NCBI GenBank assembly: GCA_042216675.1
Contig: JBDGTS010000003.1
Span: 45,227-109,226 of the forward strand
Reading direction: 5' to 3'
From: Halobacteriaceae archaeon
GTDB taxonomy: Archaea; Halobacteriota; Halobacteria; Halobacteriales; Halobacteriaceae
Length of the DNA stretch: 64,000 nt
In this document: positions 16,480-46,044 of the stretch, one piece after another
Layout of the letters: the number at the start of each line of letters is the position of its first letter
Numbering within the stretch: position 1 is the first letter of the stretch
Made by a program: the position numbers and the translations under genes
Notes under the pieces: model-generated
What the model was told of the DNA's origin: nothing
The model's input: only the letters and a program-made list of their open reading frames with translations
Database searches by the model: none

Positions 16480-17571
16480 TTACAGTCCGTCGTCCCGCGC
16501 CGCCGCCAGTAACTCCTGTACGGCGACGGCCTCGTTCGCCTCGCCGCTCTCGATGGCCGCTTCGACGAGCGCCATCGACTGGAGGTTGTCCCGGACGTTC
16601 GTCGGCATCTCGGGGCCGCCGTCGAGCCACTCCACGAACTGTTCGACGAGCCAGACGTTGCCCCACTTCTCCTGCTCGTCGAGGGGAATCAGGTCGCCGT
16701 CCGCGAACTCGGTGTGGTCGCCGACGCCTTCCCCGTCCTCGTCGTAGGGGAACGCCCGAATCTCGCCGCCCGAGAGAATCAGCGTCGCGTCGCGGCACTC
16801 GGCGCGGACGTACTCCTCTTCCCAGCCGTTGAGGCCGACGGCGTTCGTCTTCGCGCCCTCGTAGGTGGCTTCGACGCCGTTCGCCATCGTCATCGTCACG
16901 AGCGCGTTCGCGCCGGCGCCGTAGTCGCCCCAGTCGGGCGTCCAGTGCTGGCTGTAGAGTCGCTCGCACGGCGCGTCGGCCACGTCGGCGAGGATGTCGA
17001 GGTGGTGGACCCCGCCCTCCACGAGGAGCGCGTGGTCCATCTCGTGTCTGAACGACGCGCCCCACGACCCGTAGGAGCGGGCGTTGCAGGTGAACCGGCA
17101 GACGAGGTAGTCGAGGGGGCCGTAGTCGCCGGCCCGCACGAGGCGACGGAGCGTCGTCACGTCTCGTCGGAAGCGGTGTGTCATCGTGACGCCCATCTTC
17201 AGGCCTGCCTCGCGCACCGTCTCGGCGATGCGCACCGAGGCGGCCAGCGTGTCGGCGATTGGCTTCTCCGAGAGGACGTGGAGGCCGTTCTCGACGGCCG
17301 CGTCCACGACGGCCTCGTGGAACTCCGGCGGGATGACGACGGTGGCGAAGTCCGCGTCAGTCTCCGCGAACGCCGTCTCGTAGTCGGTGTACAGTTGGTC
17401 GTCGTCGAGGCCCAGTCCCTCGCGGGCGTTCTCGTGAGCGGCCTCGTCCACGTCCACGGCGGCGACGGGTTCGACGAGGCCGTCGTCGACGTTCGGCGGA
17501 AGCATGTCACGACACCACCGGGCGCCCTGCCCGCCGGTGCCGACCTGCACGAACCGGTACGGGTTCGACAT
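16480..17571 (-). CDS. Gfo/Idh/MocA family oxidoreductase
   Basis: VGTGGQG, SEKPIA, THRF, EGGVHHLD. Confidence 0.9.
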   Translation of the reverse strand: MSNPYRFVQVGTGGQGARWCRDMLPPNVDDGLVEPVAAVDVDEAAHENAREGLGLDDDQLYTDYETAFAETDADFATVVIPPEFHEAVVDAAVENGLHVLSEKPIADTLAASVRIAETVREAGLKMGVTMTHRFRRDVTTLRRLVRAGDYGPLDYLVCRFTCNARSYGSWGASFRHEMDHALLVEGGVHHLDILADVADAPCERLYSQHWTPDWGDYGAGANALVTMTMANGVEATYEGAKTNAVGLNGWEEEYVRAECRDATLILSGGEIRAFPYDEDGEGVGDHTEFADGDLIPLDEQEKWGNVWLVEQFVEWLDGGPEMPTNVRDNLQSMALVEAAIESGEANEAVAVQELLAAARDDGL

Positions 17572-17646
17572 GGCCGCGGCGACGCGCCGCCGTGGGAAAC
17601 CGCTTACGACACCGGGTTATAAGGGCCGGCGGCCGAAGCCCCGGGC

Positions 17647-18321
17647 ATGGCAGACCTCCGCGCCCTCGTCATCGGCGAGACGACGTTCGGCTTCCACGAC
17701 TTCGACGACGCCCGCCCCCACCTCCGGGCCGCGCTCGAACGGGCGAACGTCGACCCGACGCTCACGACGGACCGCGACGAACTCCGAGACCTCGCGGGCT
17801 ACGACGTGGTGGTGGACTACCTGACGGACAGCGACCTCACGGACGCCCAACGCGACGGCCTCCTCACCTTCGTCGGCGACGGCGGCGGCTACGCTGGGGT
17901 CCACTGCGCCTCGGACCTCACCAGCGTCGCCGGCCCCGACGGCGAACTCGAACACGTCGAGTCGCCGTTCCCCGGCCTGCGGGCGATGCTCGGCGGCCAC
18001 TTCCTCGGCCACCCCGAACAGCAGGATATCGACGTCGACGTCACGGACACCGGCCACCCCATCACCGCCGGCGTGCCCGACTTCACCGTCTACGACGAAC
18101 CCTACGACCTCGACGTCGACGACGACGTGACCGTCCTCGCGCGGATGGACCATCCCGAGTCCGGCGACGTGCCCGTCGCGTGGGCCAAGCGCTACGGCCG
18201 GGGCCGCGTCACCTACTGCTCGCTGGGCCACACCGAGGACGCCCTGACAGACGACGTCGTGGCCGCTCTCGTCGGCCGGGGCGCACGGTGGGCCGCCGGC
18301 GCCCTCGCGGACCCCCGGTGA
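17647..18321 (+). CDS. ThuA-like domain protein
   Basis: GGGYAGVHCASD, GGHFLGHP, DEPY, GRVTYCSLGH. Confidence 0.85.
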   Translation: MADLRALVIGETTFGFHDFDDARPHLRAALERANVDPTLTTDRDELRDLAGYDVVVDYLTDSDLTDAQRDGLLTFVGDGGGYAGVHCASDLTSVAGPDGELEHVESPFPGLRAMLGGHFLGHPEQQDIDVDVTDTGHPITAGVPDFTVYDEPYDLDVDDDVTVLARMDHPESGDVPVAWAKRYGRGRVTYCSLGHTEDALTDDVVAALVGRGARWAAGALADPR

Positions 18322-18355
18322 AAACCGTTTTGTCGGTGGCTCCCGACGCGCGACC

Positions 18356-18613
18356 ATGACAGACATCGCGGACACGTGGTACTGGGACCACCGCACCGAC
18401 ACCGCGCTCTACCCCTGCAACACGGACGGCGACACCGTGGAGTTCGTCACCGTGCGCCACCGCGACGCCGTCGCGGACGCCATCGAGGCGGGGGCGCTCG
18501 AACCCCTCGGCGAGGGCACCCCGGACGGCGACCTCGCGGGCACCCTCGACTTCATCGACTCGTTCCGCCTGCTCGACGACGACGCGCTCAGCCGATACGT
18601 GGAGGGCGAGTGA
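18356..18613 (+). CDS. hypothetical protein
   Basis: 85-aa acidic ORF; stop overlaps the sulfatase start (TGATG). Confidence 0.7.
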   Translation: MTDIADTWYWDHRTDTALYPCNTDGDTVEFVTVRHRDAVADAIEAGALEPLGEGTPDGDLAGTLDFIDSFRLLDDDALSRYVEGE

Positions 18614-19923
18614 TGAGCGACCGACCGAACGTCCTCGTCGTCCTCACCGACCAGCAGCGCTGGGACACCGTGGGTGCCTACGGCAACCCGATGGACCTCA
18701 CGCCGAACCTCGACGCGGCGGCGGAACGCGGCACCCGCGTCGAGCAGGCAATCACGCCCCAACCGGTGTGCGGGCCGGCCCGCGCCTGTCTCCAGACGGG
18801 CCGTCACGGCACCGAACACGGCGTGTTCACGAACGGGCGCGTTCCCGACTTCGAGACCGAGGCGCTCCTCGCGGAGCAGTTCGCGGACGCCGGCTACGAC
18901 ACGGGCTACGTCGGCAAGTGGCACCTCGCGAACGCGCGTCTCGACCCAGTGTCCGCCGACAAGCGCGCCGGCTACGACTTCTGGCGCGCCGCGGGCGCCC
19001 TCGAGTGGACCTCTCACCCCTACGAGGGCACCCTCTACGACGAGGACGACGACCCCGTGGAGTTCGACGGCTACCGCGTCGACGCCGTCACCGACCACGC
19101 CGAGGAGTTCATCCGGCAGGACCGCGACGACCCGTTTTTCTGCATTCTCTCCATCCTCGAACCGCACCACCAGAACGACATGGACACGTACGTCGCGCCG
19201 GACGGCTACGCCCATCGCTACCGCGACCCGTGGGTGCCCGAGGACCTGCAGGGCCGACCCGGCGACTGGTACGAGGAACTGCCGGACTACTACGGCATCT
19301 GCCGGCGCATCGACGAGTGCTACGGACGCCTCCAGCGCGTCTTGGAGGAGGAGGGCATCGCCGACGACACCATCGTCGTGTTCACGTCCGACCACGGCTC
19401 GCACTTCAAGACCCGCAACCCCGAGTACAAGCGGAGTTGCCACGAGGCGTCGGTGCGGGTCCCCCTCGTCCTCGACGGGCCGGGCTTCGAGGGCGGCAAC
19501 GTCGTCGAGGACCCGGTGAGCCTCCTCGACCTGCCGCCGACGCTTCTGGACGCCGCGGACATCGACCCGCCGGCGTCGATGACGGGTGACCCGCTCGGTC
19601 CGGTCGTCGCGGGCGACTCGGAGGGCCGGGACGCGGTGTTCGTCCAGATCAGCGAACACGAGGTCGGGCGCGCGATTCGCACCGACCGCTGGAAGTACGC
19701 CGTCTTCGACCCGGAGGCAGACCACGGGGACGACCCGGCGGGCGAGACGTACGTCGAGCGATACCTCTACGACCTCGATTCCGACCCTCACGAGCAAGTG
19801 AACCTCGTCGGGCGCCGCGACTACGCGGACGTGGCGGCTCGGCTCCGAACGCGGTTGCTCGACCGCATCGAGGCCGTCGAAGGTGAGCGGCCGACCGTCG
19901 AGGCCGCCGACTACTACGCCTGA
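18613..19923 (+). CDS. Cys-type (formylglycine) sulfatase
   Basis: PNVLVVLTDQQR, CGPARACLQTG (CxPxR), GKWHL, SDHG. Confidence 0.92.
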   Translation: MSDRPNVLVVLTDQQRWDTVGAYGNPMDLTPNLDAAAERGTRVEQAITPQPVCGPARACLQTGRHGTEHGVFTNGRVPDFETEALLAEQFADAGYDTGYVGKWHLANARLDPVSADKRAGYDFWRAAGALEWTSHPYEGTLYDEDDDPVEFDGYRVDAVTDHAEEFIRQDRDDPFFCILSILEPHHQNDMDTYVAPDGYAHRYRDPWVPEDLQGRPGDWYEELPDYYGICRRIDECYGRLQRVLEEEGIADDTIVVFTSDHGSHFKTRNPEYKRSCHEASVRVPLVLDGPGFEGGNVVEDPVSLLDLPPTLLDAADIDPPASMTGDPLGPVVAGDSEGRDAVFVQISEHEVGRAIRTDRWKYAVFDPEADHGDDPAGETYVERYLYDLDSDPHEQVNLVGRRDYADVAARLRTRLLDRIEAVEGERPTVEAADYYA

Positions 19924-21209
19924 GACCGGAAGAACTCGACCACGCCGTCCGCGTCCACCTGTCGCTCGTCGCCGCTGTCCATGTTCTGGACGGTGACGAC
20001 GCCCTCCGCGAGGTCCCGTTCGCCGACGACGACGGTCCAGTCGGCGTTCACGGAGTCCGCGTAGGAGAACTGGCTCCCGACGCTCCGGCCCGTGAGGTCC
20101 GTCTCCACGACGAGACCCTCGCCCCGCAGTGCGCGGGCGTAGTCGAGGGCGGTGTCGCGCAGCTCCTCGGAGACGTTCAGCACGTACACGTCGGTCCGGT
20201 GTTCCTCGGCGGGCCACTGCCCGGCGTCCTGTAGCAGTTCGCGGGTCGTGGAGTAGCCGAAGGCGAACCCGACGGCGGGCACGTCGCGGCCGCCGAACAG
20301 GCCCACGAGGTCGTCGTAGCGCCCGCCGCCGAACAGGGCGCGCAGGTCGCCCTCGGCGTCGAACGCCTCGAAGACGAGGCCCGTGTAGTAGGCGAGGCCC
20401 CGAACGATGGAGAGGTCGAGTTCGCACATCCCGACGACGCCGTGAGAGTCGAGGGCGTCCGCGAGGTCGTCCATCCGGTCGATGGCCGCCGTCGCGCGTT
20501 CGTCGTCGGGCGCCTGTTCGCGGAGTTCGTCCAGCGTCTCGTCGAGAGGGCCGCTGATGGCCGTGAGGTCTGCCACCTCCTCGGCCGTCTCCCGGTCGAG
20601 GCCGCGGGTGCCGAGTTCGTCGAGGTACTCGGCGCGGCTGAGTTTCTCACGGTCGTCCACGACGCGCATGACTTCCGTCGTGTTCTCGACGCCGTGGGCC
20701 TCAAGCAGGGCTTCGAGCAGGTTCCGGTCGTTGACGAGGAACTCCACCCTGTCGCCGACGCCGAGGCGGCGGAACGCGGTGGCGCCGACGGCGATGACTT
20801 CCGCGTCCGCGGCGACGGACTCGACGCCGAAGACGTCCACGTCAGTCTGGAAGAACTCGCGGTCCCGCCCCTTCTGGACGTTCTCGTAGCGCCAGCGCTT
20901 GGACGTGTCGTACCACTTGATCGGCGTCTTGAGGTCCTTCCGGCTCTGGACCATCCGGGCGCGGGTGGGCGTCTGCTCGGGGGTGAGCGTCACCTCGCGC
21001 CCGCTCCGGTCCTCGAAACTGTACGTCTGTTCGAGGAGTTCCTCGCCGGACTTCACGCGGTAGAGGTCCGTGCGCTCGACGGCGGGGGTGTTGACCTCGC
21101 GGAAGCCGAACTCGGCGGCCGTGCGCTCCACGGTGTCGATGACCTCGCGCCACGCGGCGAACTCCTCGGGGTAGCGGTCGTAGAATCCCTTCAGGCTCTC
21201 GATTGTCAT
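19914..21209 (-). CDS. hisS: histidine--tRNA ligase (core portion from internal ATG)
   Basis: KGFYDRYP, PEQTP, motif 2 WRYENVQKGRDREFFQ, RGLAYYTG, GGRYD, AVGFAFG, C-terminal anticodon-binding domain. Confidence 0.93.
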   Translation of the reverse strand: MTIESLKGFYDRYPEEFAAWREVIDTVERTAAEFGFREVNTPAVERTDLYRVKSGEELLEQTYSFEDRSGREVTLTPEQTPTRARMVQSRKDLKTPIKWYDTSKRWRYENVQKGRDREFFQTDVDVFGVESVAADAEVIAVGATAFRRLGVGDRVEFLVNDRNLLEALLEAHGVENTTEVMRVVDDREKLSRAEYLDELGTRGLDRETAEEVADLTAISGPLDETLDELREQAPDDERATAAIDRMDDLADALDSHGVVGMCELDLSIVRGLAYYTGLVFEAFDAEGDLRALFGGGRYDDLVGLFGGRDVPAVGFAFGYSTTRELLQDAGQWPAEEHRTDVYVLNVSEELRDTALDYARALRGEGLVVETDLTGRSVGSQFSYADSVNADWTVVVGERDLAEGVVTVQNMDSGDERQVDADGVVEFFRSQA

Positions 21210-21980
21210 AGTCGGTCGGTCGCGCTCGCGTTTCTTAAAGACCCCCAGTCTGCTCGTCGCGCCGGGGACGGAGCGGTACGTCAGGCCGTACTCGTCGGCG
21301 GTGGACCCGCTCACGTACATGTAGATGCCGGCCGTGTCGGGACCCACGTCCGCCAGCAGGGCCTCCTCGTCGGCGTCCGGGCGGTCCACGGCCTCGGCGT
21401 GGGCCTCGTAGGTCCGTATCTCGCTCACGCGCTCGAATGCGAGGTCGGCGAGGCGGGTCCCCAACTGCCGGAACGCCTCGGGGACGAGGACCGTCTCGGG
21501 ACGCTTCGGGATGGCCTCGGGCGCCATCACGGCCCACGACACCTCGTCGCCGAGGGCGGCGTCGAGTTCGTACCCTCGCTCGCCCATCAGCGACCGGACG
21601 GCGCTCTCGATGCCGTCGGCGAGGTCCGGGTCAGCGCCACGGCGGAGACACGTCTCGATTAGCTCGTCGTACCCCGCGTAGAAGCGGGTCGCGCCGTTGC
21701 GCCACGCCTCGGCGGGCGACTCGTAGCCCTCCACCCGGCGGTCCGTGAACTCGATGCGGTTGAACACCGGCCGGTCGGCCTCCCGGCCGTAGTAGTTCAG
21801 CGAGAGGAGGTCCTCGACCGCGTCGACGTACTCTCGGACCTCCGCCACGCCCTCACCCGTCTTCGCGGCCCGCTTGCCGCGGCCGTTGATGAGGTCGGCC
21901 AGCCACTCGGTGTCGTACGCGTCGCCGGCGAGTTCACGCTCCAGCGCGAGTCTCGCGTTCCGTCCCTTTTCGGGGACCAT
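21210..21980 (-). CDS. divergent HisG (ATP phosphoribosyltransferase)-like domain, in frame with hisS with no stop codon
   Basis: VPEKGR, AGYDELIE, WAVMAP, VSGSTADEYGL occur in the order of HisG motifs; GGTGA SD-like sequence before ATG 21980 (alternative GTG at 21992). Confidence 0.55.
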
Positions 21981-22069
21981 GAACGTACTCACCGGCGTTC
22001 GCCCCGGCGTCAGAAGCCGTCGTCATGCTCGAACGGTGGCCGGACGGAGCCAAAAGCCCTTCCCTTCGG

Positions 22070-22624
22070 TCACTCGGCGTCGGCGGGCGTGTCGAAGTCG
22101 TGGAAGTGCTCGCCTTTCTCCTTGCTGAGGATGTTCAGCGCCGCCGCGGCGCCGTCGCCCGCCGAGATGATGGCCTGCCACTCCTCGGCGCGGACCATCG
22201 CGCCCGTCGCGTAGGCGTCCGCGACGCTCGTCTCCATCGTCACGTCCACGTCGACCACGTCCTCGTCGGTGAACGCACAGCCGAGCGCCTCCGCGAGGTC
22301 ACGCTTGGCGCCCGTCGCCAACACGAGGTAGTCAGCTTCCACGGCGTCGTCCTCCGTGTCGACGGTGAAGCCCTCGTCCGTCGCCGCGACGCCCGTCGCT
22401 TCCGTTTCCCTGAGGTCCGCACCGAACTCCGCTACCTGCTCGCGGGCGCCCTCGACGAACTCGGTGCCGTCCTCGCTCTCGATGCCGAGGTAGTTGAACA
22501 GGTGCGCCTTGTGCAGCCACGTCTCGTCCGTGTCGAAGACGACCGTGTCGAGACCGTTCTTCGCGGTGAACAGTGCGGCGCTCAGGCCGGCGGGACCACC
22601 GCCGACGACAGCGACATCTGTCAT
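22070..22624 (-). CDS. NAD(P)/FAD-dependent oxidoreductase (short thioredoxin reductase-like)
   Basis: VVGGGPAGLSAA, LVLATG, QAIISAGDG. Confidence 0.85.
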   Translation of the reverse strand: MTDVAVVGGGPAGLSAALFTAKNGLDTVVFDTDETWLHKAHLFNYLGIESEDGTEFVEGAREQVAEFGADLRETEATGVAATDEGFTVDTEDDAVEADYLVLATGAKRDLAEALGCAFTDEDVVDVDVTMETSVADAYATGAMVRAEEWQAIISAGDGAAAALNILSKEKGEHFHDFDTPADAE

Positions 22625-22697
22625 GGCACATCATGCCGCGGGCAGACACAAATAGATGGGGACGCCGGCGAGTACCGTGCCGACCGGTCACACCTCG

Positions 22698-23171
22698 CTA
22701 CGGGGCGAAGTGGTCCCGCGTCCGGCGGTGTCTGTCGCGGAACATGCCCTCGAAGAACGGCGGCGCGATGGCGTCACCGACGTCCCCCAGCGGCGTCGCG
22801 TACCGCACGCGGTCCCGCAACAGCGTCTCGTCGCCGTCGGCGTAGAAGATGTGGGTGTGTTCCCAGTGCCGGAACGGCCCGTCGCGCATCACGTCCCGAA
22901 AGTAGCCGCTCCCGCGCTCGCGTTCGCGGGCCGTGATTTCGCTCGTCCAGCCCTGTCTGGGGCCGACGCCGAACGGGCGCACCGACATCTCGATGCGCGT
23001 GCCCGGCACGAGCGTCTCGGGGTTTCGGTCGCCGTCGGGGCCGACGACGGACTCGATTTGGAGGTGTAGCCACGGCGGCGTCAGCGCTCGGAGGCCGTCG
23101 ATGGTGGAGTGAAACGCCCACACCGCCTCGAACGGTGCCGCGACCCGGCTCTCTCGCTCGAAACTCCGCAT
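22698..23171 (-). CDS. SRPBCC family protein
   Basis: VWAFHS, LTPPWL, GPFRHWEHTH. Confidence 0.85.
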   Translation of the reverse strand: MRSFERESRVAAPFEAVWAFHSTIDGLRALTPPWLHLQIESVVGPDGDRNPETLVPGTRIEMSVRPFGVGPRQGWTSEITARERERGSGYFRDVMRDGPFRHWEHTHIFYADGDETLLRDRVRYATPLGDVGDAIAPPFFEGMFRDRHRRTRDHFAP

Positions 23172-23210
23172 ACCGGGCAGACGGGCCGCCGCGCCAAAAG
23201 TTAGGGGGTG

Positions 23211-23639
23211 TTACTTCAGACGCTCCTGCAGGAACGAGGGATGGGCCGCGGTGACGCCCTCGATGTCGAGGATGGCGTCGCTGATGACTTCGCCGAGGGC
23301 GTCGCCGTCGGGGGCGCGCACTTCGGCCATCAGCATGTGGTCGCCGGAGGACGTGTAGAGGGCGCGCACGGCGTCGAGGTCCTTCAGTTCTTGTGTCGCC
23401 TCGACGTAACGCTCGCTGGCCACGTCGATACCGACCAGCGCGATGGACTGGCCGGACATCTTCTTGGGGTCCACCTCGGCGGAGTAGCCGACGATGACCC
23501 CCTCGTCCTCGAGCCGGTTGATGTACTTGCGAACCGTCGGCTTCGAGACGCCGGCGCGTTCGGAGATTTCGGCGTAGGAGGCCTGCGCGTCCTCTTCCAG
23601 AACGGCCAGGATACGTTCCTCCGTCGATTCGGAACTCAC
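23211..23639 (-). CDS. lrpA1: Lrp/AsnC family regulator LrpA1
   Basis: DAQASYAEI...VSKPTVRKYI, YTSSGDHMLM, HPSFLQERLK. Confidence 0.88.
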   Translation of the reverse strand: MSSESTEERILAVLEEDAQASYAEISERAGVSKPTVRKYINRLEDEGVIVGYSAEVDPKKMSGQSIALVGIDVASERYVEATQELKDLDAVRALYTSSGDHMLMAEVRAPDGDALGEVISDAILDIEGVTAAHPSFLQERLK

Positions 23640-23699
23640 GACTCCCCCTTTGAGACGCCCGAAAAAATATCTTCCGAATCCGAAACTCCGGTTGCGGGG

Positions 23700-24635
23700 T
23701 TACTTGTGGCGGTCGATGAAGTCGTAGGACCGCTCCCAGTCGGCGTCGTCGTCGAAGTAGCGCTCCGCGAGGGGCGACTCGGGCGCGTCCTCGTTGGTGC
23801 GCTTCTCCTCGTAGTAGGACCGGCGGTCCTCCTCGACGTAGTAGCGGCCGGTGAGGACCTCGCCCTCGTACAGTTTCTCCTCGGTCTTCTGCATCATCTC
23901 CTGCGCCTCGGTGCGGTCCGTGACGTCGAAGTCGTAGTCGTCCGACTCCTGCACGTCGACGTAGGGCACGTACTGGCGCGCGTCCTTGTTCCACGTCGGG
24001 CACTGCGTGAGGAAGTCGACGTGGGCGAAGCCGTCGTGTTCGACGGCCTCCTTGATGATCTCCTGTGCCTGATTGGGGTTGACGGCGGCCGTGCGGGCCA
24101 CGTAGGACGCCCCGGAGGTCAGCGAGAGCGAGAGGGGCCGAAGCGGGTCCTTCGCGTTGCCCTTGGGCTGGGTCTTCGACTTGTGACCCTTCGGGGAGGT
24201 GGGCGAGGTCTGGCCCTTCGTGAGGCCGAAGACCTCGTTGTTGAACACGATGTAGGTCATGTCGTGGTTCTCCCGGGCGGTGTGCATGAAGTGGTTCCCG
24301 CCGATGCCGTAGCCGTCGCCGTCGCCGCCGGCGGCGACCACGGTGAGTTCGGGGTTGGCGAGGCTCGCGGCCCGCGCGATGGGGAGCGAGCGACCGTGAA
24401 TCGTGTGGAACCCGTAGCTGTCGAAGTAGCTGTTCAGCTTGCCCGAGCAGCCGATGCCGGTGGCGACGAGGACCTCCTCGGGGTTCTTGCCGAGGTCGGT
24501 CATCGCGCCCTTCAGTGCCTTGTTGACCGCGAAGTCACCACAGCCCGGACACCACGTCGGTTGCGGCTCGATGCCGGGGGTGAAGTCGTCGCGGTCTACC
24601 TCGCGTTGCTCGTCGATTGCGTTGAATGCGCTCAT
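23700..24635 (-). CDS. porB: pyruvate:ferredoxin oxidoreductase beta subunit
   Basis: WCPGCGDF, GIGCS, GGDGD TPP motif; resembles Halobacterium PorB. Confidence 0.92.
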   Translation of the reverse strand: MSAFNAIDEQREVDRDDFTPGIEPQPTWCPGCGDFAVNKALKGAMTDLGKNPEEVLVATGIGCSGKLNSYFDSYGFHTIHGRSLPIARAASLANPELTVVAAGGDGDGYGIGGNHFMHTARENHDMTYIVFNNEVFGLTKGQTSPTSPKGHKSKTQPKGNAKDPLRPLSLSLTSGASYVARTAAVNPNQAQEIIKEAVEHDGFAHVDFLTQCPTWNKDARQYVPYVDVQESDDYDFDVTDRTEAQEMMQKTEEKLYEGEVLTGRYYVEEDRRSYYEEKRTNEDAPESPLAERYFDDDADWERSYDFIDRHK

Positions 24636-24638
24636 TGA

Positions 24639-26531
24639 TTAGTCACCCGTCGCGGGTTCGAGTCGAGTTTGGGTGTTCGGCGATTCGGTGCCGCCGTTGA
24701 CCTGCACCTCGAAGCCCTCGACGACCTCTTCGGGCTCGAAGGGGTTGCCGTTGTACTTCAGGAGGCTGGTCATCTTGTCGGCGTAGTCGCCGAGGTTCTT
24801 CTGGACGTGACCGCGGAACTGGCCCGTGGAGTTCATCTCCACGACCAGCGCCTCCTCGACGCCGTCGAGGAACGCGGCCACTTCGTCGGACGGGAACGGC
24901 ATCATGTCGCTCACGGAGAGCGCCTTCACGGACTCGCCGTCCTCGTTGAGGCGCTCGACGGCCTCCCGAACGGTGCCTTGAGAACTGCCCCACGTCAGGA
25001 TGCCGTACTCGGCGTCCTCGGGGCCCCAGCGGGTCTGCTGACTCTCCGCTTCGTCCAGCATCTCGCGCACGCTGTCGAGCTTGCTGTTCCGGCGGTCCAC
25101 CTGCGCGACCCGGTTGGCGGGGTCCTCGCTGATGTGGCCGGAGGGGTTGTGCTCGTTCCCGGTGGCGAGATAGTGGCCGCCCTTCTGGCCGGGCACGGAG
25201 CGCGGACTGACGCCGTCCTCGGCGTCGTGCTGGAAGCGCTCGAACTTGCCCGAGGGGTGGTGGGGCTGGTCCTCGAGTTCCGCCTCGGTGAGTGTCTTGC
25301 CCATGTCCGGGTTCGGCTCCCGGTCGAAGAAGCTCGCGGGGACGTTGCGGTACTCCCCGGAGAGCTTCTGGTCGTAGATGATGATGGCGGGCATCTGGTA
25401 CTCGTAGGCCGCGCGGAACGCCATCCGCGTCTGCTCGTAGCACTCCTTGACGTTGCCGGGCGCGAACACGACGCGGTTCGAGTCGCCCTGACTCGTGGAG
25501 AGGACGAACTCGAGGTCGGCCTGTTCGGGCTTGGTCGGCATCCCCGTCGAGGGGCCAGCGCGCATGGATTCGAGCAGGACGACCGGCGTCTCGGTCATCT
25601 CCGCGAGGCCCAGGGGCTCGGACATCAGCGCGAAGCCACCGCCGGAGGACCCGGACATCGCCTTCACGCCTGCGTGGGACGCGCCAAGCGCCATCGCGGC
25701 GGCGGCGATTTCGTCCTCCACCTGCTCGTGGATGCCCCCGACTTCGGGCATCAGGTTCGTCATGATGGTGAACGCGTCCGTCCACGGCGTCATGGGGTAG
25801 CCCGCGATGAAGCGACAGCCCTCGTCCAGCGCCCCGTAGGCGATGGCGTGACTGCCGCCGAGGAGGACCTGCTCCTCGTCGTGGGATCCTTCGGGGACCG
25901 TGAGGTCGTGGGTGTGGTCGAACTCCTCGTTGACCTGCTGGTAGGCGTCTTCGAGGACGTCGAGGTTCTGTTCGAGCACCTCGCCGCTCATCGCCTCGGC
26001 CATCAGGTCCTCGATGTGGTCGAGGTCGAAGTCGACGAGGGCGGCCGTCGCGCCGACGCCGGCCGTGTTCCGCATGATCTCGCGGCCGTGTTCGCGGGCG
26101 AGGTCACGGAGGTTGATGGGGTAGACGTGCCAGTTGTTCTCCTCGACCCGTTCGTCGAAGTTCTCGACCTCCTCGATGTCGATGAGGCCCTCGTCGTAGA
26201 TGATGACGCCGCCCTCGCGGAGTTCGTCGAGGTTCTCCGTGAGGGGCTTGAGCTCTTCGTTCCCGTAGTAGGCGTGGTCGGATTCGTTCCGGGCGAAACT
26301 GTCCCCCAGCGCGAGCAACATGTTGTAGCCGTCGCCACGGGACGTGACTTCCTCCGGTGCCGCGCGGATTTCGACGTACGTGTGGCCGCCGCGGATCCGC
26401 GAGGGGTAGTGCCGGTGAGTGAAGACGTCCAGCCCCGACCGCATCAGCGCTGTCGCGAAGTTCTGGCTCGTCGAGTCGATTCCGTCGCCGGAACCGCCCG
26501 CGATTCGCCAGACGAGTTCGTCGTCGGTCAT
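24639..26531 (-). CDS. porA: pyruvate:ferredoxin oxidoreductase alpha subunit
   Basis: GGSGDGIDS, YPSRIRGG, GYPMTP, RAGPSTGMPT. Confidence 0.92.
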   Translation of the reverse strand: MTDDELVWRIAGGSGDGIDSTSQNFATALMRSGLDVFTHRHYPSRIRGGHTYVEIRAAPEEVTSRGDGYNMLLALGDSFARNESDHAYYGNEELKPLTENLDELREGGVIIYDEGLIDIEEVENFDERVEENNWHVYPINLRDLAREHGREIMRNTAGVGATAALVDFDLDHIEDLMAEAMSGEVLEQNLDVLEDAYQQVNEEFDHTHDLTVPEGSHDEEQVLLGGSHAIAYGALDEGCRFIAGYPMTPWTDAFTIMTNLMPEVGGIHEQVEDEIAAAAMALGASHAGVKAMSGSSGGGFALMSEPLGLAEMTETPVVLLESMRAGPSTGMPTKPEQADLEFVLSTSQGDSNRVVFAPGNVKECYEQTRMAFRAAYEYQMPAIIIYDQKLSGEYRNVPASFFDREPNPDMGKTLTEAELEDQPHHPSGKFERFQHDAEDGVSPRSVPGQKGGHYLATGNEHNPSGHISEDPANRVAQVDRRNSKLDSVREMLDEAESQQTRWGPEDAEYGILTWGSSQGTVREAVERLNEDGESVKALSVSDMMPFPSDEVAAFLDGVEEALVVEMNSTGQFRGHVQKNLGDYADKMTSLLKYNGNPFEPEEVVEGFEVQVNGGTESPNTQTRLEPATGD

Positions 26532-43831: not shown

Positions 43832-46044
43832 CGCTCGCGCTCCGCGCGCGCCGCCGCGTTCCCGTAGGCGTCCACCAGCGGGCGGTAGGCACCGCCGAGC
43901 GCCCGCATGCACTCGCTCGTGGAGTGGTAGCCGAGGTCCTCGGCCACCGTGCCCCAACTCCGGTTCTGGAGGACGCGCGTGACGAGCAGTCGCTCCTCGC
44001 GGGCCGATAGCACGTCGGGGGCCGGGTCCACGAGGTGCGCGACGGCGAGGCGGCGGAACGGACGCGGGTCCACGTCGTACAGCGCCGGACCGTAGGCGGC
44101 GCCGGCGACGAGGCGCCAGTCCCTGTCGTCGAGGTCCGGGTCCGGGTCGGCGTCCGTCGCGCGGAGCGTCGCCCGCACCACGTCAGGGTCCGCGTCGCGG
44201 AGTGCGTCGGCCAAGACGGCGGGCGCGCGGTCCGCGAACCACGCGGCGTGGTCGTCGTGGAGCGTCTGCCCGCGTTCGCTCGTCGGCTTCAGGACGATGG
44301 CCGAGTACTCGCCGCTCGTCTCGTTGCGCGTCGTCGAGAGATGCACCGCGCCGTAGCCGTTCGCGTCCCAGAAATCGAGGAGTTCGGGCGTCGCGCCGAA
44401 CCCGGAGCCGACCCAGTCCGCGTCGGCGCCCGCTTCGACGGCGTCGAGGAGGGCGGAGCCGAGGCCCCGGGAGCGAACGGCGTGGTGCGTCGCGATGCGG
44501 ACGACTCGGACCCCTGCCGCCTCGCCCGCCACCTCGTCCCGGAGTTGGCTCGTCAGCACGTCCGGAATCATGTTGCCGGGGACGCGCCCGCCCTCGTACA
44601 TCTCGGTCCGCCAGTCCGCGGAGAGCGCGCCCTCGCGGGCGAGCAGAGCGACGCTGACGACGTGGCCGTCGTGGCAGAGCGCCCGCACGGAGAGGTTGGG
44701 GGCGTCGAGCAGGCGGGCCAAGTCGTCGGGTTCGGTGCGGTAGTGCGCGGCGACCAGCAAGCCAAACACCTCGCGCAACAGGTGTTCGTCGTCGGCCAAC
44801 TCCGCGCCGGTGGGCGCGCGCTCGGCGACCGTCTCGGGCGTCGCGCCTTCGACGAGCTGGTCCACCGGGGGCCGCGCGTCGAGCAACAGCGCGTGGAACG
44901 CCCACGACTCCACGGGGTCGCCGCCGGCGTAGCGAATCGGCTCGTGGAGGCGGACCGTCGTCACCTCGTGCTCGGAGTCGGCGAGTCGGCCCCGGAAGCG
45001 CACGTCGAAGCCCCGGCCCGCGCCCTCGTAGCCGTGGACCGTCGTCGTGAAGCCGACGGCGTCGACGTCGAGGAACGATTCGAGGCGCCGCACCGGGAGC
45101 GCGGCCGCCTCGTCCACGAGCAGAACGTCGGGGTCGGCGTCGACGGCCTCGGCGACGGGGAGGAATCGCACCGCGCCCCCGCCGGCGTCGAGTCGCTTCG
45201 GCGGGTCCCCGGAGACGGCGTCGAGCGACCCGAGGTCCGAGAGCAGGGCCTCGGCGCGGACGAACACTTCTCGCGCGCTCCGGTACCCCGGGGCCGTCAC
45301 GGCCACGTCGCGCCCCTCGGCGGCGAGGCAGGCGGCCGCGAGACCCGCCGCGGCGGACTTCCCGCGCCCCCGGTCGGACTCGACGACGACTGCCGAATCG
45401 GGGTCCCGCAGGGCTTCGAACGCCGCGACGGCCTCGGCTTGGTCGTCGGTGAGACAGGCCTCGAAGGCCGCAGCGGGGAACGGAGACCCGGCGGGGGGCG
45501 TCGGTGGCGTTCGGGGCCGCCGCGGCGGCGGGTCGGTCAGGCCGTCGTCCCGAACCGCTTCACTGTCGGCGTCGTAGATGGCGACCCCGCGGTGCGCGCG
45601 GAGGGTTTCGACCAGTCGCTCGCGGAAGCGCCCCGTCACGTCGCCCACGTCGAAGGGCGGGACGGCCAGCGACTCGTCGAAGCCGTCGCGGCGCGCGGGC
45701 CACTCCTCGAGGGGCGGCGTCAGGAGGACGAACAGGCCGCCACCGTCGACGGCGCCGACGGTCCGCCCGAGGACGTTCGGCGGGCAGGTGTCGTGAGCGT
45801 CCACGACGACGACGGCCCGCGTCGTTCCGAGTAGCCGGCCTGCGTGGACCGGCGCGATGCGCTCGCAGGCCAGCGCCGACGCCTCGCCGACGAGCGTGGT
45901 TTCCGTACGGGGTACGTCCGCGGCCGCGAGTGCCGTCTCCGCGGCGTCGTAGCACGCGTCGCTGTCGCCGGTAATCACGAGGGCGCGGCGCTCGTCGGCC
46001 GCGCGCGCCTCCGCCCGGAGCGCTCCGGCGAGGTCCGCAATCAT
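43822..46044 (-). CDS. tmcA: tRNA(Met) cytidine acetyltransferase (TmcA/Nat10)
   Basis: [39 protein letters not shown]. Confidence 0.94.

Follow-up and report, generated by a model that had tools for sequence, protein, structure and literature searches.

We analysed a 64,000-nucleotide stretch of DNA (hereafter, the window) from a Halobacteriaceae archaeon, namely positions 45,227 to 109,226 of contig JBDGTS010000003.1 in assembly GCA_042216675.1. The source was a metagenome-assembled genome (MAG) of 2.15 Mb in 58 contigs that was 80% complete. On the reverse strand of the window lay a gene in which a histidyl-tRNA synthetase (HisRS) was preceded, in the same frame, by a domain resembling HisG, the ATP-phosphoribosyltransferase (ATP-PRT) with which histidine biosynthesis begins. 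A sequence-only reading of the window had described this gene as one stop-free frame of about 690 codons, with about 257 residues ahead of a complete HisRS that kept its anticodon-binding domain. The translation indeed ran through 692 codons from a GTG without an internal stop, and both the class-II catalytic core (PF13393) and the anticodon-binding domain (PF03129) were present (Table 1). The extension was there as well, although it was longer than proposed: by the Pfam boundary, 263-267 residues stood ahead of HisRS. All five motifs that had been picked out of it (VPEKGR, AGYDELIE, WAVMAP, EEALL and VSGSTADEYGL) were found in the translation in the order given, and residues 1-268 had no Pfam match. 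It was likely that translation began at the ATG four codons after the GTG, because 18 of 25 aligned homologs started at MVPEKGRN.

Coding status and conservation of the extension

The open frame alone was weak evidence, since the DNA had a G+C content of 70% (66-75% across the window) and long spurious open reading frames (ORFs) covered the same bases, among them one of 672 aa on the same strand and one of 406 aa on the opposite strand. A search with residues 1-268 returned 36 proteins of 688-723 aa (45-88% identity, E from 1.9e-147 to 1.9e-56). All of them carried the HisRS and anticodon-binding domains and, where named, were annotated as histidine--tRNA ligase. Fused proteins occurred in the isolate Halorhabdus salina FL145 and in MAGs called Haloplanus, Halobaculum and Halobacteriaceae. 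Moreover, the uninterrupted fused frame was found in two genomes (G026 and G007) by a whole-genome search of 41 relatives and in four more (G171, G188, G198 and G231) from a 401-genome sample of the class; G188 was a single contig. With G000 included, seven of the haloarchaeal genomes searched, spread over five genera, had the fusion.

When 25 fused proteins were aligned, the N-terminal domain showed several invariant blocks (VPEKGRN, GKxAAKTG, GR..RP, RFYAG.D, W..M, VLVP, EE and G.YM.V.G.TA). In comparisons with two close relatives, the ratio of nonsynonymous to synonymous substitution rates (dN/dS) was 0.19 and 0.15 for this domain vs 0.07 and 0.09 for the HisRS part. The composition of the whole ORF was acidic rather than rich in Arg and Pro (D+E 0.21, R+P 0.13). 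Thus, given the acidic composition, the conservation in 36 proteins and the dN/dS of 0.15-0.19, the N-terminal extension was a genuine coding sequence under purifying selection.

It could still be argued that the fusion was an artefact: the hisS frame might run on upstream only spuriously in DNA of high G+C content, or a stop codon between two genes might have been lost through a mistake in assembly or sequencing. Long spurious frames did abound in the region, and one old metagenomic copy of the fused gene was frameshifted (L034:51-1490, on a 2.3-kb contig, where the translation turned into Arg-rich nonsense after about residue 99, through either a sequencing error or pseudogene formation). 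However, the same unbroken fusion was seen in the 36 database proteins, in the single-contig genome and in a named isolate, the extension was acidic and under purifying selection, and the model of the domain folded with confidence (see below). The artefact could be set aside as having next to no chance, because the fusion was unbroken across proteins and genomes and the domain was conserved with low dN/dS. The earlier reading had itself raised the case of a stop codon missing through error or recent mutation; this was not so, since the fusion was kept in isolates and complete genomes.

Fold and relatives of the N-terminal domain

The structure of the N-terminal domain was modelled with AlphaFold2 from 14 fused sequences (mean predicted local distance difference test score, pLDDT, of 77; predicted template modelling score, pTM, of 0.74). 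Confidence was high from about residue 95 and low in residues 1-5, in residues 56-81 and in the linker. In a Foldseek search of the PDB, ATP-PRTs filled the top ranks (best E 1e-6, probability 1.00, template modelling score, TM, of 0.36-0.51). VIA-align gave a similar picture: the first 34 entries were all HisG (Z 8.9-11.1, 165-182 residues aligned, root-mean-square deviation 3.2-4.2), and the next type of fold, the type-II binding proteins of the LysR and solute-binding kinds, reached a Z of 7.8 at most. The domain consisted of the two catalytic lobes only; nothing in it corresponded to the regulatory domain at the C-terminus of long HisG, and there was no PF08029 match. It therefore resembled short-form HisG, which has no regulatory domain after lobe II. 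The chain then continued through a variable linker into HisRS, so that a partner of the HisRS fold was present in cis. Judging from the model, the domain very probably has the HisG fold. The sequence-only reading had proposed a HisG-fold module tethered to a genuine synthetase and had pointed to a structure search as a check; HisG came first in both programs, and the C-terminal part passed the hisS model.

The motifs and secondary-structure elements of the model followed one another as the sequence-only reading had mapped them. VPEKGR lay at the first strand, RFYAG-YDELIE made up a strand and a helix, and WAVMAP and VLVP were strands of lobe II; the EE pair followed, and YMYV-SGSTA made up a strand-loop-helix. 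Canonical haloarchaeal HisG showed VPNKGRL, GITGYDQ and DITSTGTTL in matching order. We take these motifs to be putative equivalents, at the level of motifs, of those in HisG. The S-G-x-T-A loop lay between the model strand 216-222 and the helix 227-231 (numbering from M5), and it is a candidate equivalent of the canonical loop for phosphoribosyl pyrophosphate (PRPP), D-x-x-x-(S/T)-G-x-T-L, which follows the final strand of lobe II. Similarly, we assume that E209/E210 is a candidate equivalent of the Glu in the GSVE motif of HisG. One block had no such counterpart: G39, K40, A42, A43, T45 and G46 were invariant in the 25 fused proteins, and GKRAAKTG was not seen in canonical haloarchaeal HisG.

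The family of this domain was small. When 1.84 billion cluster representatives were searched exhaustively with its profile, only 22 proteins came up at E <= 0.001. Besides the fused form and some weaker matches, these were acidic, free-standing proteins, about a dozen in number and 235-290 aa long (E from 9e-59 to 3.5e-19). As to whether homologs were fused or adjacent to hisS, a point raised by the earlier reading, most of the relatives found were fused, and free-standing forms existed too. Across 20 fused and free-standing members, G10, R74, D109, L169, E209, E210, Y224, G229, T231 and A232 were invariant, and K9, R11, N12, K40, K44 and R70 were nearly so (numbering from the GTG). Such charged residues together with a Gly/Thr loop form a pattern that an ATP/PRPP-binding site would need. 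Outside the HisRS part, the family members had no Pfam domain, and none was found in the 15 proteins from a further homolog search. The 401-genome class sample, searched with a single N-domain protein, contained fused forms only; a 401-genome phylum sample, searched with the family profile, yielded only G000; and phage collections yielded no match. In the ESM Atlas, only archaeal clusters were found, at 0.82-0.85, which was below the meaningful level. One more protein, P0057 (1617 aa), matched profile positions 144-221 in seven separate stretches (E 6e-7); it may be a repeat protein, or composition may account for the match.

A further relative was a free-standing HisG-like paralog of about 300 aa (alignment A5) with the pattern VPRKGRP ... 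YLTVTGSTAREHGL ... FPSETVL. It was homologous to the N-terminal domain (hhalign probability 97.2%, E 4.5e-11, 219 columns). Its PF01634 matches were sub-threshold (13.7-18.6 bits vs a cut-off of 25.5, E 0.002-0.06), and its model, of low confidence (pLDDT 64), matched HisG structures first. A search of all PDB sequences with the paralog profile gave no HisG. The paralog occurred in 19 of the 41 relatives, mostly beside canonical HisG, and all 16 carriers among the 25 high-quality relatives had canonical HisG as well. Because of this coexistence, it was not a simple substitute for HisG. Downstream of the paralog in L006, a gene read by eye like a PHP-family phosphoesterase. We also considered diverse HisG sequences as a bridge between families, and this was abandoned, as the search returned only close haloarchaeal HisG (71-100% identical).

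Table 1. Positions of the fused gene, its parts and the free-standing paralogs (fused-gene coordinates refer to the window, paralog coordinates to the named loci)
Feature	Position	Strand	Remarks
Whole fused gene	19914..21992	-	692 codons plus stop codon 19914-19916; start at the GTG of 21992 or, more probably, the ATG of 21980
N-terminal domain, HisG fold (predicted)	21207..21980	-	residues 5-262 from the GTG; AlphaFold2 model, Foldseek, VIA-align
VPEKGRN motif	21957..21977	-	residues 6-12; invariant columns in 25 aligned fused proteins
GKRAAKTG insert	21855..21878	-	residues 39-46; Lys/Thr/Gly-rich, family-specific, conserved
E209-E210 acidic pair	21363..21368	-	invariant in 20/20 family members (E205, E206 from M5)
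YMYVSGSTA	21297..21323	-	residues 224-232; P-loop-like S-G-x-T-A after a strand, at the helix start; candidate PRPP 5'-phosphate loop
Junction Met, M268	21189..21191	-	start codon of the unfused form of the same HisRS lineage; possible internal start
HisRS class-II catalytic core	20256..21188	-	residues 269-579; PF13393 (tRNA-synt_His) E 8.5e-53; TIGR00442 above cut-off
HGTP anticodon-binding domain	19923..20192	-	residues 601-690; PF03129 E 4.6e-17
Paralog of about 300 aa (alignment A5)	L005:1207-2103, L006:1204-2100, L007:1177-2094, L009:799-1722, L018:910-1803, L020:772-1680		
Paralog of about 300 aa	L021:1435-2331, L008:1375-2277	-	

The synthetase lineage and the distribution of hisG

The HisRS part scored 360.5 bits with the hisS model TIGR00442 (cut-off 286.75), or 359.9 bits when the HisRS domain was taken alone. 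With the hisZ model TIGR00443 it scored 205.9-207.7 bits and failed the cut-off of 271.65, while ordinary haloarchaeal HisRS scored 209.6-214.9. The idea that the HisRS part was drifting towards HisZ was rejected accordingly, its hisZ score being no higher than that of ordinary haloarchaeal HisRS. The fused HisRS was the sole PF13393 match in the source genome. Every genome that we examined had exactly one HisRS match, and in the fusion genomes this was the fused one. By these matches, the C-terminal 425 residues were the organism's only, and fully equipped, histidyl-tRNA synthetase. A second hisS or a canonical hisG elsewhere in the genome, for which the earlier reading had advised a search, was not found in either case.

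In a quick maximum-likelihood tree of HisRS (IQ-TREE, with 19 ordinary haloarchaeal rows kept and L050, L052, L054, L060, L070 and L076 dropped, as the motif pattern used did not locate where they start), 13 fused and two unfused proteins formed a clade with 100% support and a branch length of 1.07, apart from ordinary haloarchaeal HisRS. Therefore, the fused gene belonged to a distinct HisRS lineage, which extended over four taxonomic families. The two unfused members (L059:1477-2781 in G012 and L072:1477-2775 in G013) were 72-73% identical to the HisRS part from the window, and their upstream in-frame sequence was Arg/Pro-rich and looked non-coding. G012 had canonical HisG; G013, which was 82% complete, gave only a weak PF01634 match. 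Both unfused proteins started at the Met equivalent to M268. In all 25 fused proteins, a Met preceded the LKG motif by 5-7 residues, although the linker was otherwise variable. From this conserved junction Met, translation might also start internally and so produce free HisRS.

Canonical HisG was widespread among the relatives. Matches to PF01634 above the cut-off were present in 34 of the 41 relatives (25 of the 25 high-quality ones) and in 385 of the 401 genomes of the class sample; all five fusion genomes in that sample were among the 16 without. Canonical HisG by PF01634 was absent from all seven fusion genomes, four of which were 97-99% complete, so the fusion and the canonical form were mutually exclusive. 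A profile of canonical haloarchaeal HisG, searched without a positive control, also had no match in G000, G198, G188, G171 and G231. The remainder of the pathway was kept: hisD (histidinol dehydrogenase), hisB (imidazoleglycerol-phosphate dehydratase) and hisI (phosphoribosyl-AMP cyclohydrolase) in five of five fusion genomes tested, and two strong His_biosynth matches (hisA and hisF) in seven of seven. The fusion genomes were related to each other, so these counts were not independent.

The clearest case was genus g48. Five of its seven genomes had canonical HisG, and their HisRS was an ordinary one with 51-53% identity to the HisRS of the window; two had the fusion without HisG, with a HisRS part 66-70% identical to that of the window. 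Thus, within this genus, the fused gene replaced both hisS and hisG. The loss of hisG with retention of the rest of the pathway would be easiest to understand if the incoming fused gene supplied that step. The paralog was not found in G198 (99% complete), G007 or G026, and in G000 its sole match was the fused domain itself. The fused domain was therefore the only HisG-fold candidate found in G198, where canonical HisG and the paralog were both absent. Another genus to which we return below, g45, was represented by G077, G111, G133, G135, G253, G259, G311 and G361 (loci L037-L041, L044, L046 and L047), with ordinary HisRS, as checked in two of them.

The genes around the fused gene had no link with histidine. 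On one side (16483-19923) were a GFO/IDH/MocA oxidoreductase, a ThuA-like protein and, converging on the 3' end of the fused gene, a sulfatase. On the other (22073-26531) lay a 184-aa ORF resembling FAD/pyridine-nucleotide-disulphide oxidoreductases, a polyketide-cyclase/SRPBCC-like protein, an Lrp/AsnC regulator and a two-subunit 2-oxoacid:ferredoxin oxidoreductase. Neither his genes nor a conserved neighbour stood beside the fused gene in the window or at four other loci, where the contexts differed.

Possible functions and known counterparts

We considered it somewhat more likely than not that the fused gene encodes a bifunctional enzyme, a diverged short-form ATP-PRT joined to HisRS, and gave the same odds to the N-terminal domain being the working ATP-PRT of these organisms. 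The domain would then act as a short-form ATP-PRT with K9/R11, R70/R74, D109, E209/E210 and the S228-G229-x-T231 loop as candidate residues. HisRS is a homodimer, and its dimer would hold two N-terminal domains together, as in HisG dimers. The junction Met would let some free HisRS be made. As a speculation, the body of the synthetase, which is covalently attached and binds histidine as its substrate, would be the natural candidate to take over from HisZ, or from the regulatory domain that is missing, and provide histidine feedback. That the synthetase body regulates the domain in this way seemed rather unlikely.

A number of results weigh against catalysis, and several of them favour a different function, in which the HisG-fold domain is a non-catalytic sensor that binds PRPP, ATP, histidine or an intermediate and tunes HisRS or signals histidine, while ATP-PRT activity is provided by another protein (the paralog or some other enzyme). 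The sequence-only reading had pointed out that the PRPP-like loop lacks the Asp, and the position of the Asp of the canonical loop was indeed Met or Val in 25 of 25 fused proteins. Several free-standing members (P0040, P0042, P0047, P0048, P0049 and P0051) had Asp or Glu two residues before the loop Gly (YMYDSGGTA, YIVDSGGTA), and some had Asn, where fused members had Val or Thr; the chemistry of the loop may thus differ between free and fused forms. Hidden Markov models of HisG did not recognise the domain: it had no match in Pfam or NCBIfam (PF01634, TIGR00070), and none of 20 fused and free-standing members matched PF01634 even at E <= 1. Comparison of its profile with canonical haloarchaeal HisG by hhalign aligned only a stretch of 8-15 residues around VPxKGR, which was not significant, and a search of all PDB sequences with the profile gave noise only and no HisG. 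The TM scores to HisG were low, as given above, and the first 90 or so residues of the model were of low confidence. The genome of the window was incomplete, as stated. Moreover, the paralog, whose model (of low confidence) matched HisG first, was also present in the fusion genomes G188, G171 and G231 and could fill the hisG hole there. Finally, all eight sampled genomes of genus g45, together with G069, G246 and G408, had neither canonical HisG nor the fusion and carried only the paralog, yet hisD and hisI were kept in five of the five such genomes tested (three from g45). Some other ATP-PRT must therefore exist in haloarchaea, possibly the paralog, which is the obvious candidate for this second hisG hole, in g45. 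On the other hand, G198 retained hisD, hisB, hisI, hisA and hisF without canonical HisG or the paralog, the paralog was likewise missing from the search results for G000, G007 and G026, and in all 16 high-quality carriers it accompanied canonical HisG rather than replacing it. A mere sensor would also leave the absence of canonical hisG from all seven fusion genomes unexplained. Overall, the genomic evidence points more to catalysis than to sensing, which the sequence-only reading had raised as a possibility, and we rated the sensor as a minority possibility, at roughly one chance in four. An even more distant option was that the domain has an unrelated role on a scaffold like that of periplasmic binding proteins (tRNA handling, localisation, or another phosphoribosyl or nucleotide transfer), the loss of hisG being coincidental or offset by histidine uptake. 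Folds of the type-II binding proteins are common, and members other than HisG reached a Z of 7.8; the fused gene had no his neighbours, and its free-standing homologs came from metagenomic organisms. However, HisG entries took the top 34 places, 1-3 Z units above all other folds, and the remaining seven or so genes of the pathway were kept although they would be useless without the first step. In addition, a HisRS fold and a HisG fold side by side are exactly what the known HisZ-HisG pairing consists of (PMC8305728, PMC9437257). We therefore regarded an unrelated role as improbable.

If the bifunctional enzyme is taken further, the fusion might be a 'missing link' to the HisZ-HisG system, in which an essential HisRS serves as the cis activator and histidine sensor of a short ATP-PRT, and the fused domain, its free-standing forms and the relatives of about 300 aa would constitute a third class of ATP-PRT, not recognised before, while the invariant junction Met would let one gene give two products, the bifunctional enzyme and free HisRS. 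Occupancy of the histidine site of the synthetase (perhaps also of its tRNA site) would throttle entry into histidine biosynthesis, and the third class would also account for the haloarchaeal genomes that seemingly lack hisG. We rated this extended proposal as a minority possibility.

The consequences differ with the activity of the domain. If it is active, it fills an annotation hole, since the fusion genomes would otherwise be scored as histidine auxotrophs, and it defines a class of HisG that is invisible to current Pfam and TIGRFAM models. The cultured Halorhabdus salina would then be a system for asking whether a working synthetase regulates a biosynthetic enzyme and so couples tRNA charging to the synthesis of the same amino acid. 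Even an inactive domain would be a regulatory appendage, so far unreported, of an essential synthetase. Neither a HisG-HisRS fusion nor this domain was described in anything that a full-text literature search brought up, subscription journals and supplements being outside its reach.

HisG(S)-HisZ is the textbook case of a tRNA-synthetase paralog that was recruited into amino-acid biosynthesis, and how a synthetase first became a partner of HisG is an evolutionary question that bears on the fusion. According to PMC8305728 and PMC9437257, short HisG enzymes need HisZ for activation and histidine feedback, and only separate hisG(L), hisG(S) and hisZ genes are described there. HisZ lacks the anticodon-binding domain (PMC8305728) and is reported to occur only in bacteria (PMC9437257). 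Similar to the bacterial HisG(S)-HisZ of Lactococcus lactis, Thermotoga maritima and Psychrobacter arcticus, the fused gene brings together a short HisG-fold module, as predicted, and a histidine-binding class-II protein of the HisRS fold, and the model of its N-terminal domain aligned with the HisG(S) chains of such complexes (PDB 1z7m, 1usy and 5m8h) at Z 10.0-10.6 in VIA-align. In contrast to HisG(S)-HisZ, the fused protein is a single polypeptide and its host is archaeal. Its HisRS part, unlike HisZ, still has the anticodon-binding domain, scores above the hisS cut-off and below that for hisZ, and is the only HisRS of the cell. Unlike HisG(S), its N-terminal domain escaped PF01634 and TIGR00070.

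Ordinary hisG is listed in Natrinema (PMC3402447). Canonical haloarchaeal HisG is of the long form (282 aa, PF01634 and PF08029, for example in Halarchaeum and Halobacterium). By structure comparison the fused domain appears to share its two-lobe fold, and the two have in common the N-terminal V-P-x-K-G-R and a loop rich in Gly and Thr behind the final strand of lobe II. However, it shows no significant profile-profile similarity to the canonical enzyme, has no C-terminal regulatory domain, contains the extra GKxAAKTG insert and lacks the Asp before the loop. With the paralog of about 300 aa it has the order of motifs in common (VPRKGRP ... GFDSADLVLEE ... EEEAA ... YLTVTGSTA in the paralog), whereas the paralog is free-standing and has further insertions.

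Another synthetase with an N-terminal domain of this general kind is the HisRS of plants and Giardia that has a histidine ammonia-lyase (HAL)-like domain (Saga et al. 2020, PMC7564348). There, too, the domain in front of HisRS has a fold that derives from histidine metabolism. In that case, the fold is that of HAL instead of HisG, eukaryotes are the hosts, and no pathway hole is known to be tied to the HAL form. Compared with all of these systems, the gene described here would represent an ATP-PRT-like module whose partner of the HisRS fold is a true synthetase and lies in cis, the hosts being archaeal and the class of HisG one that current models do not see.

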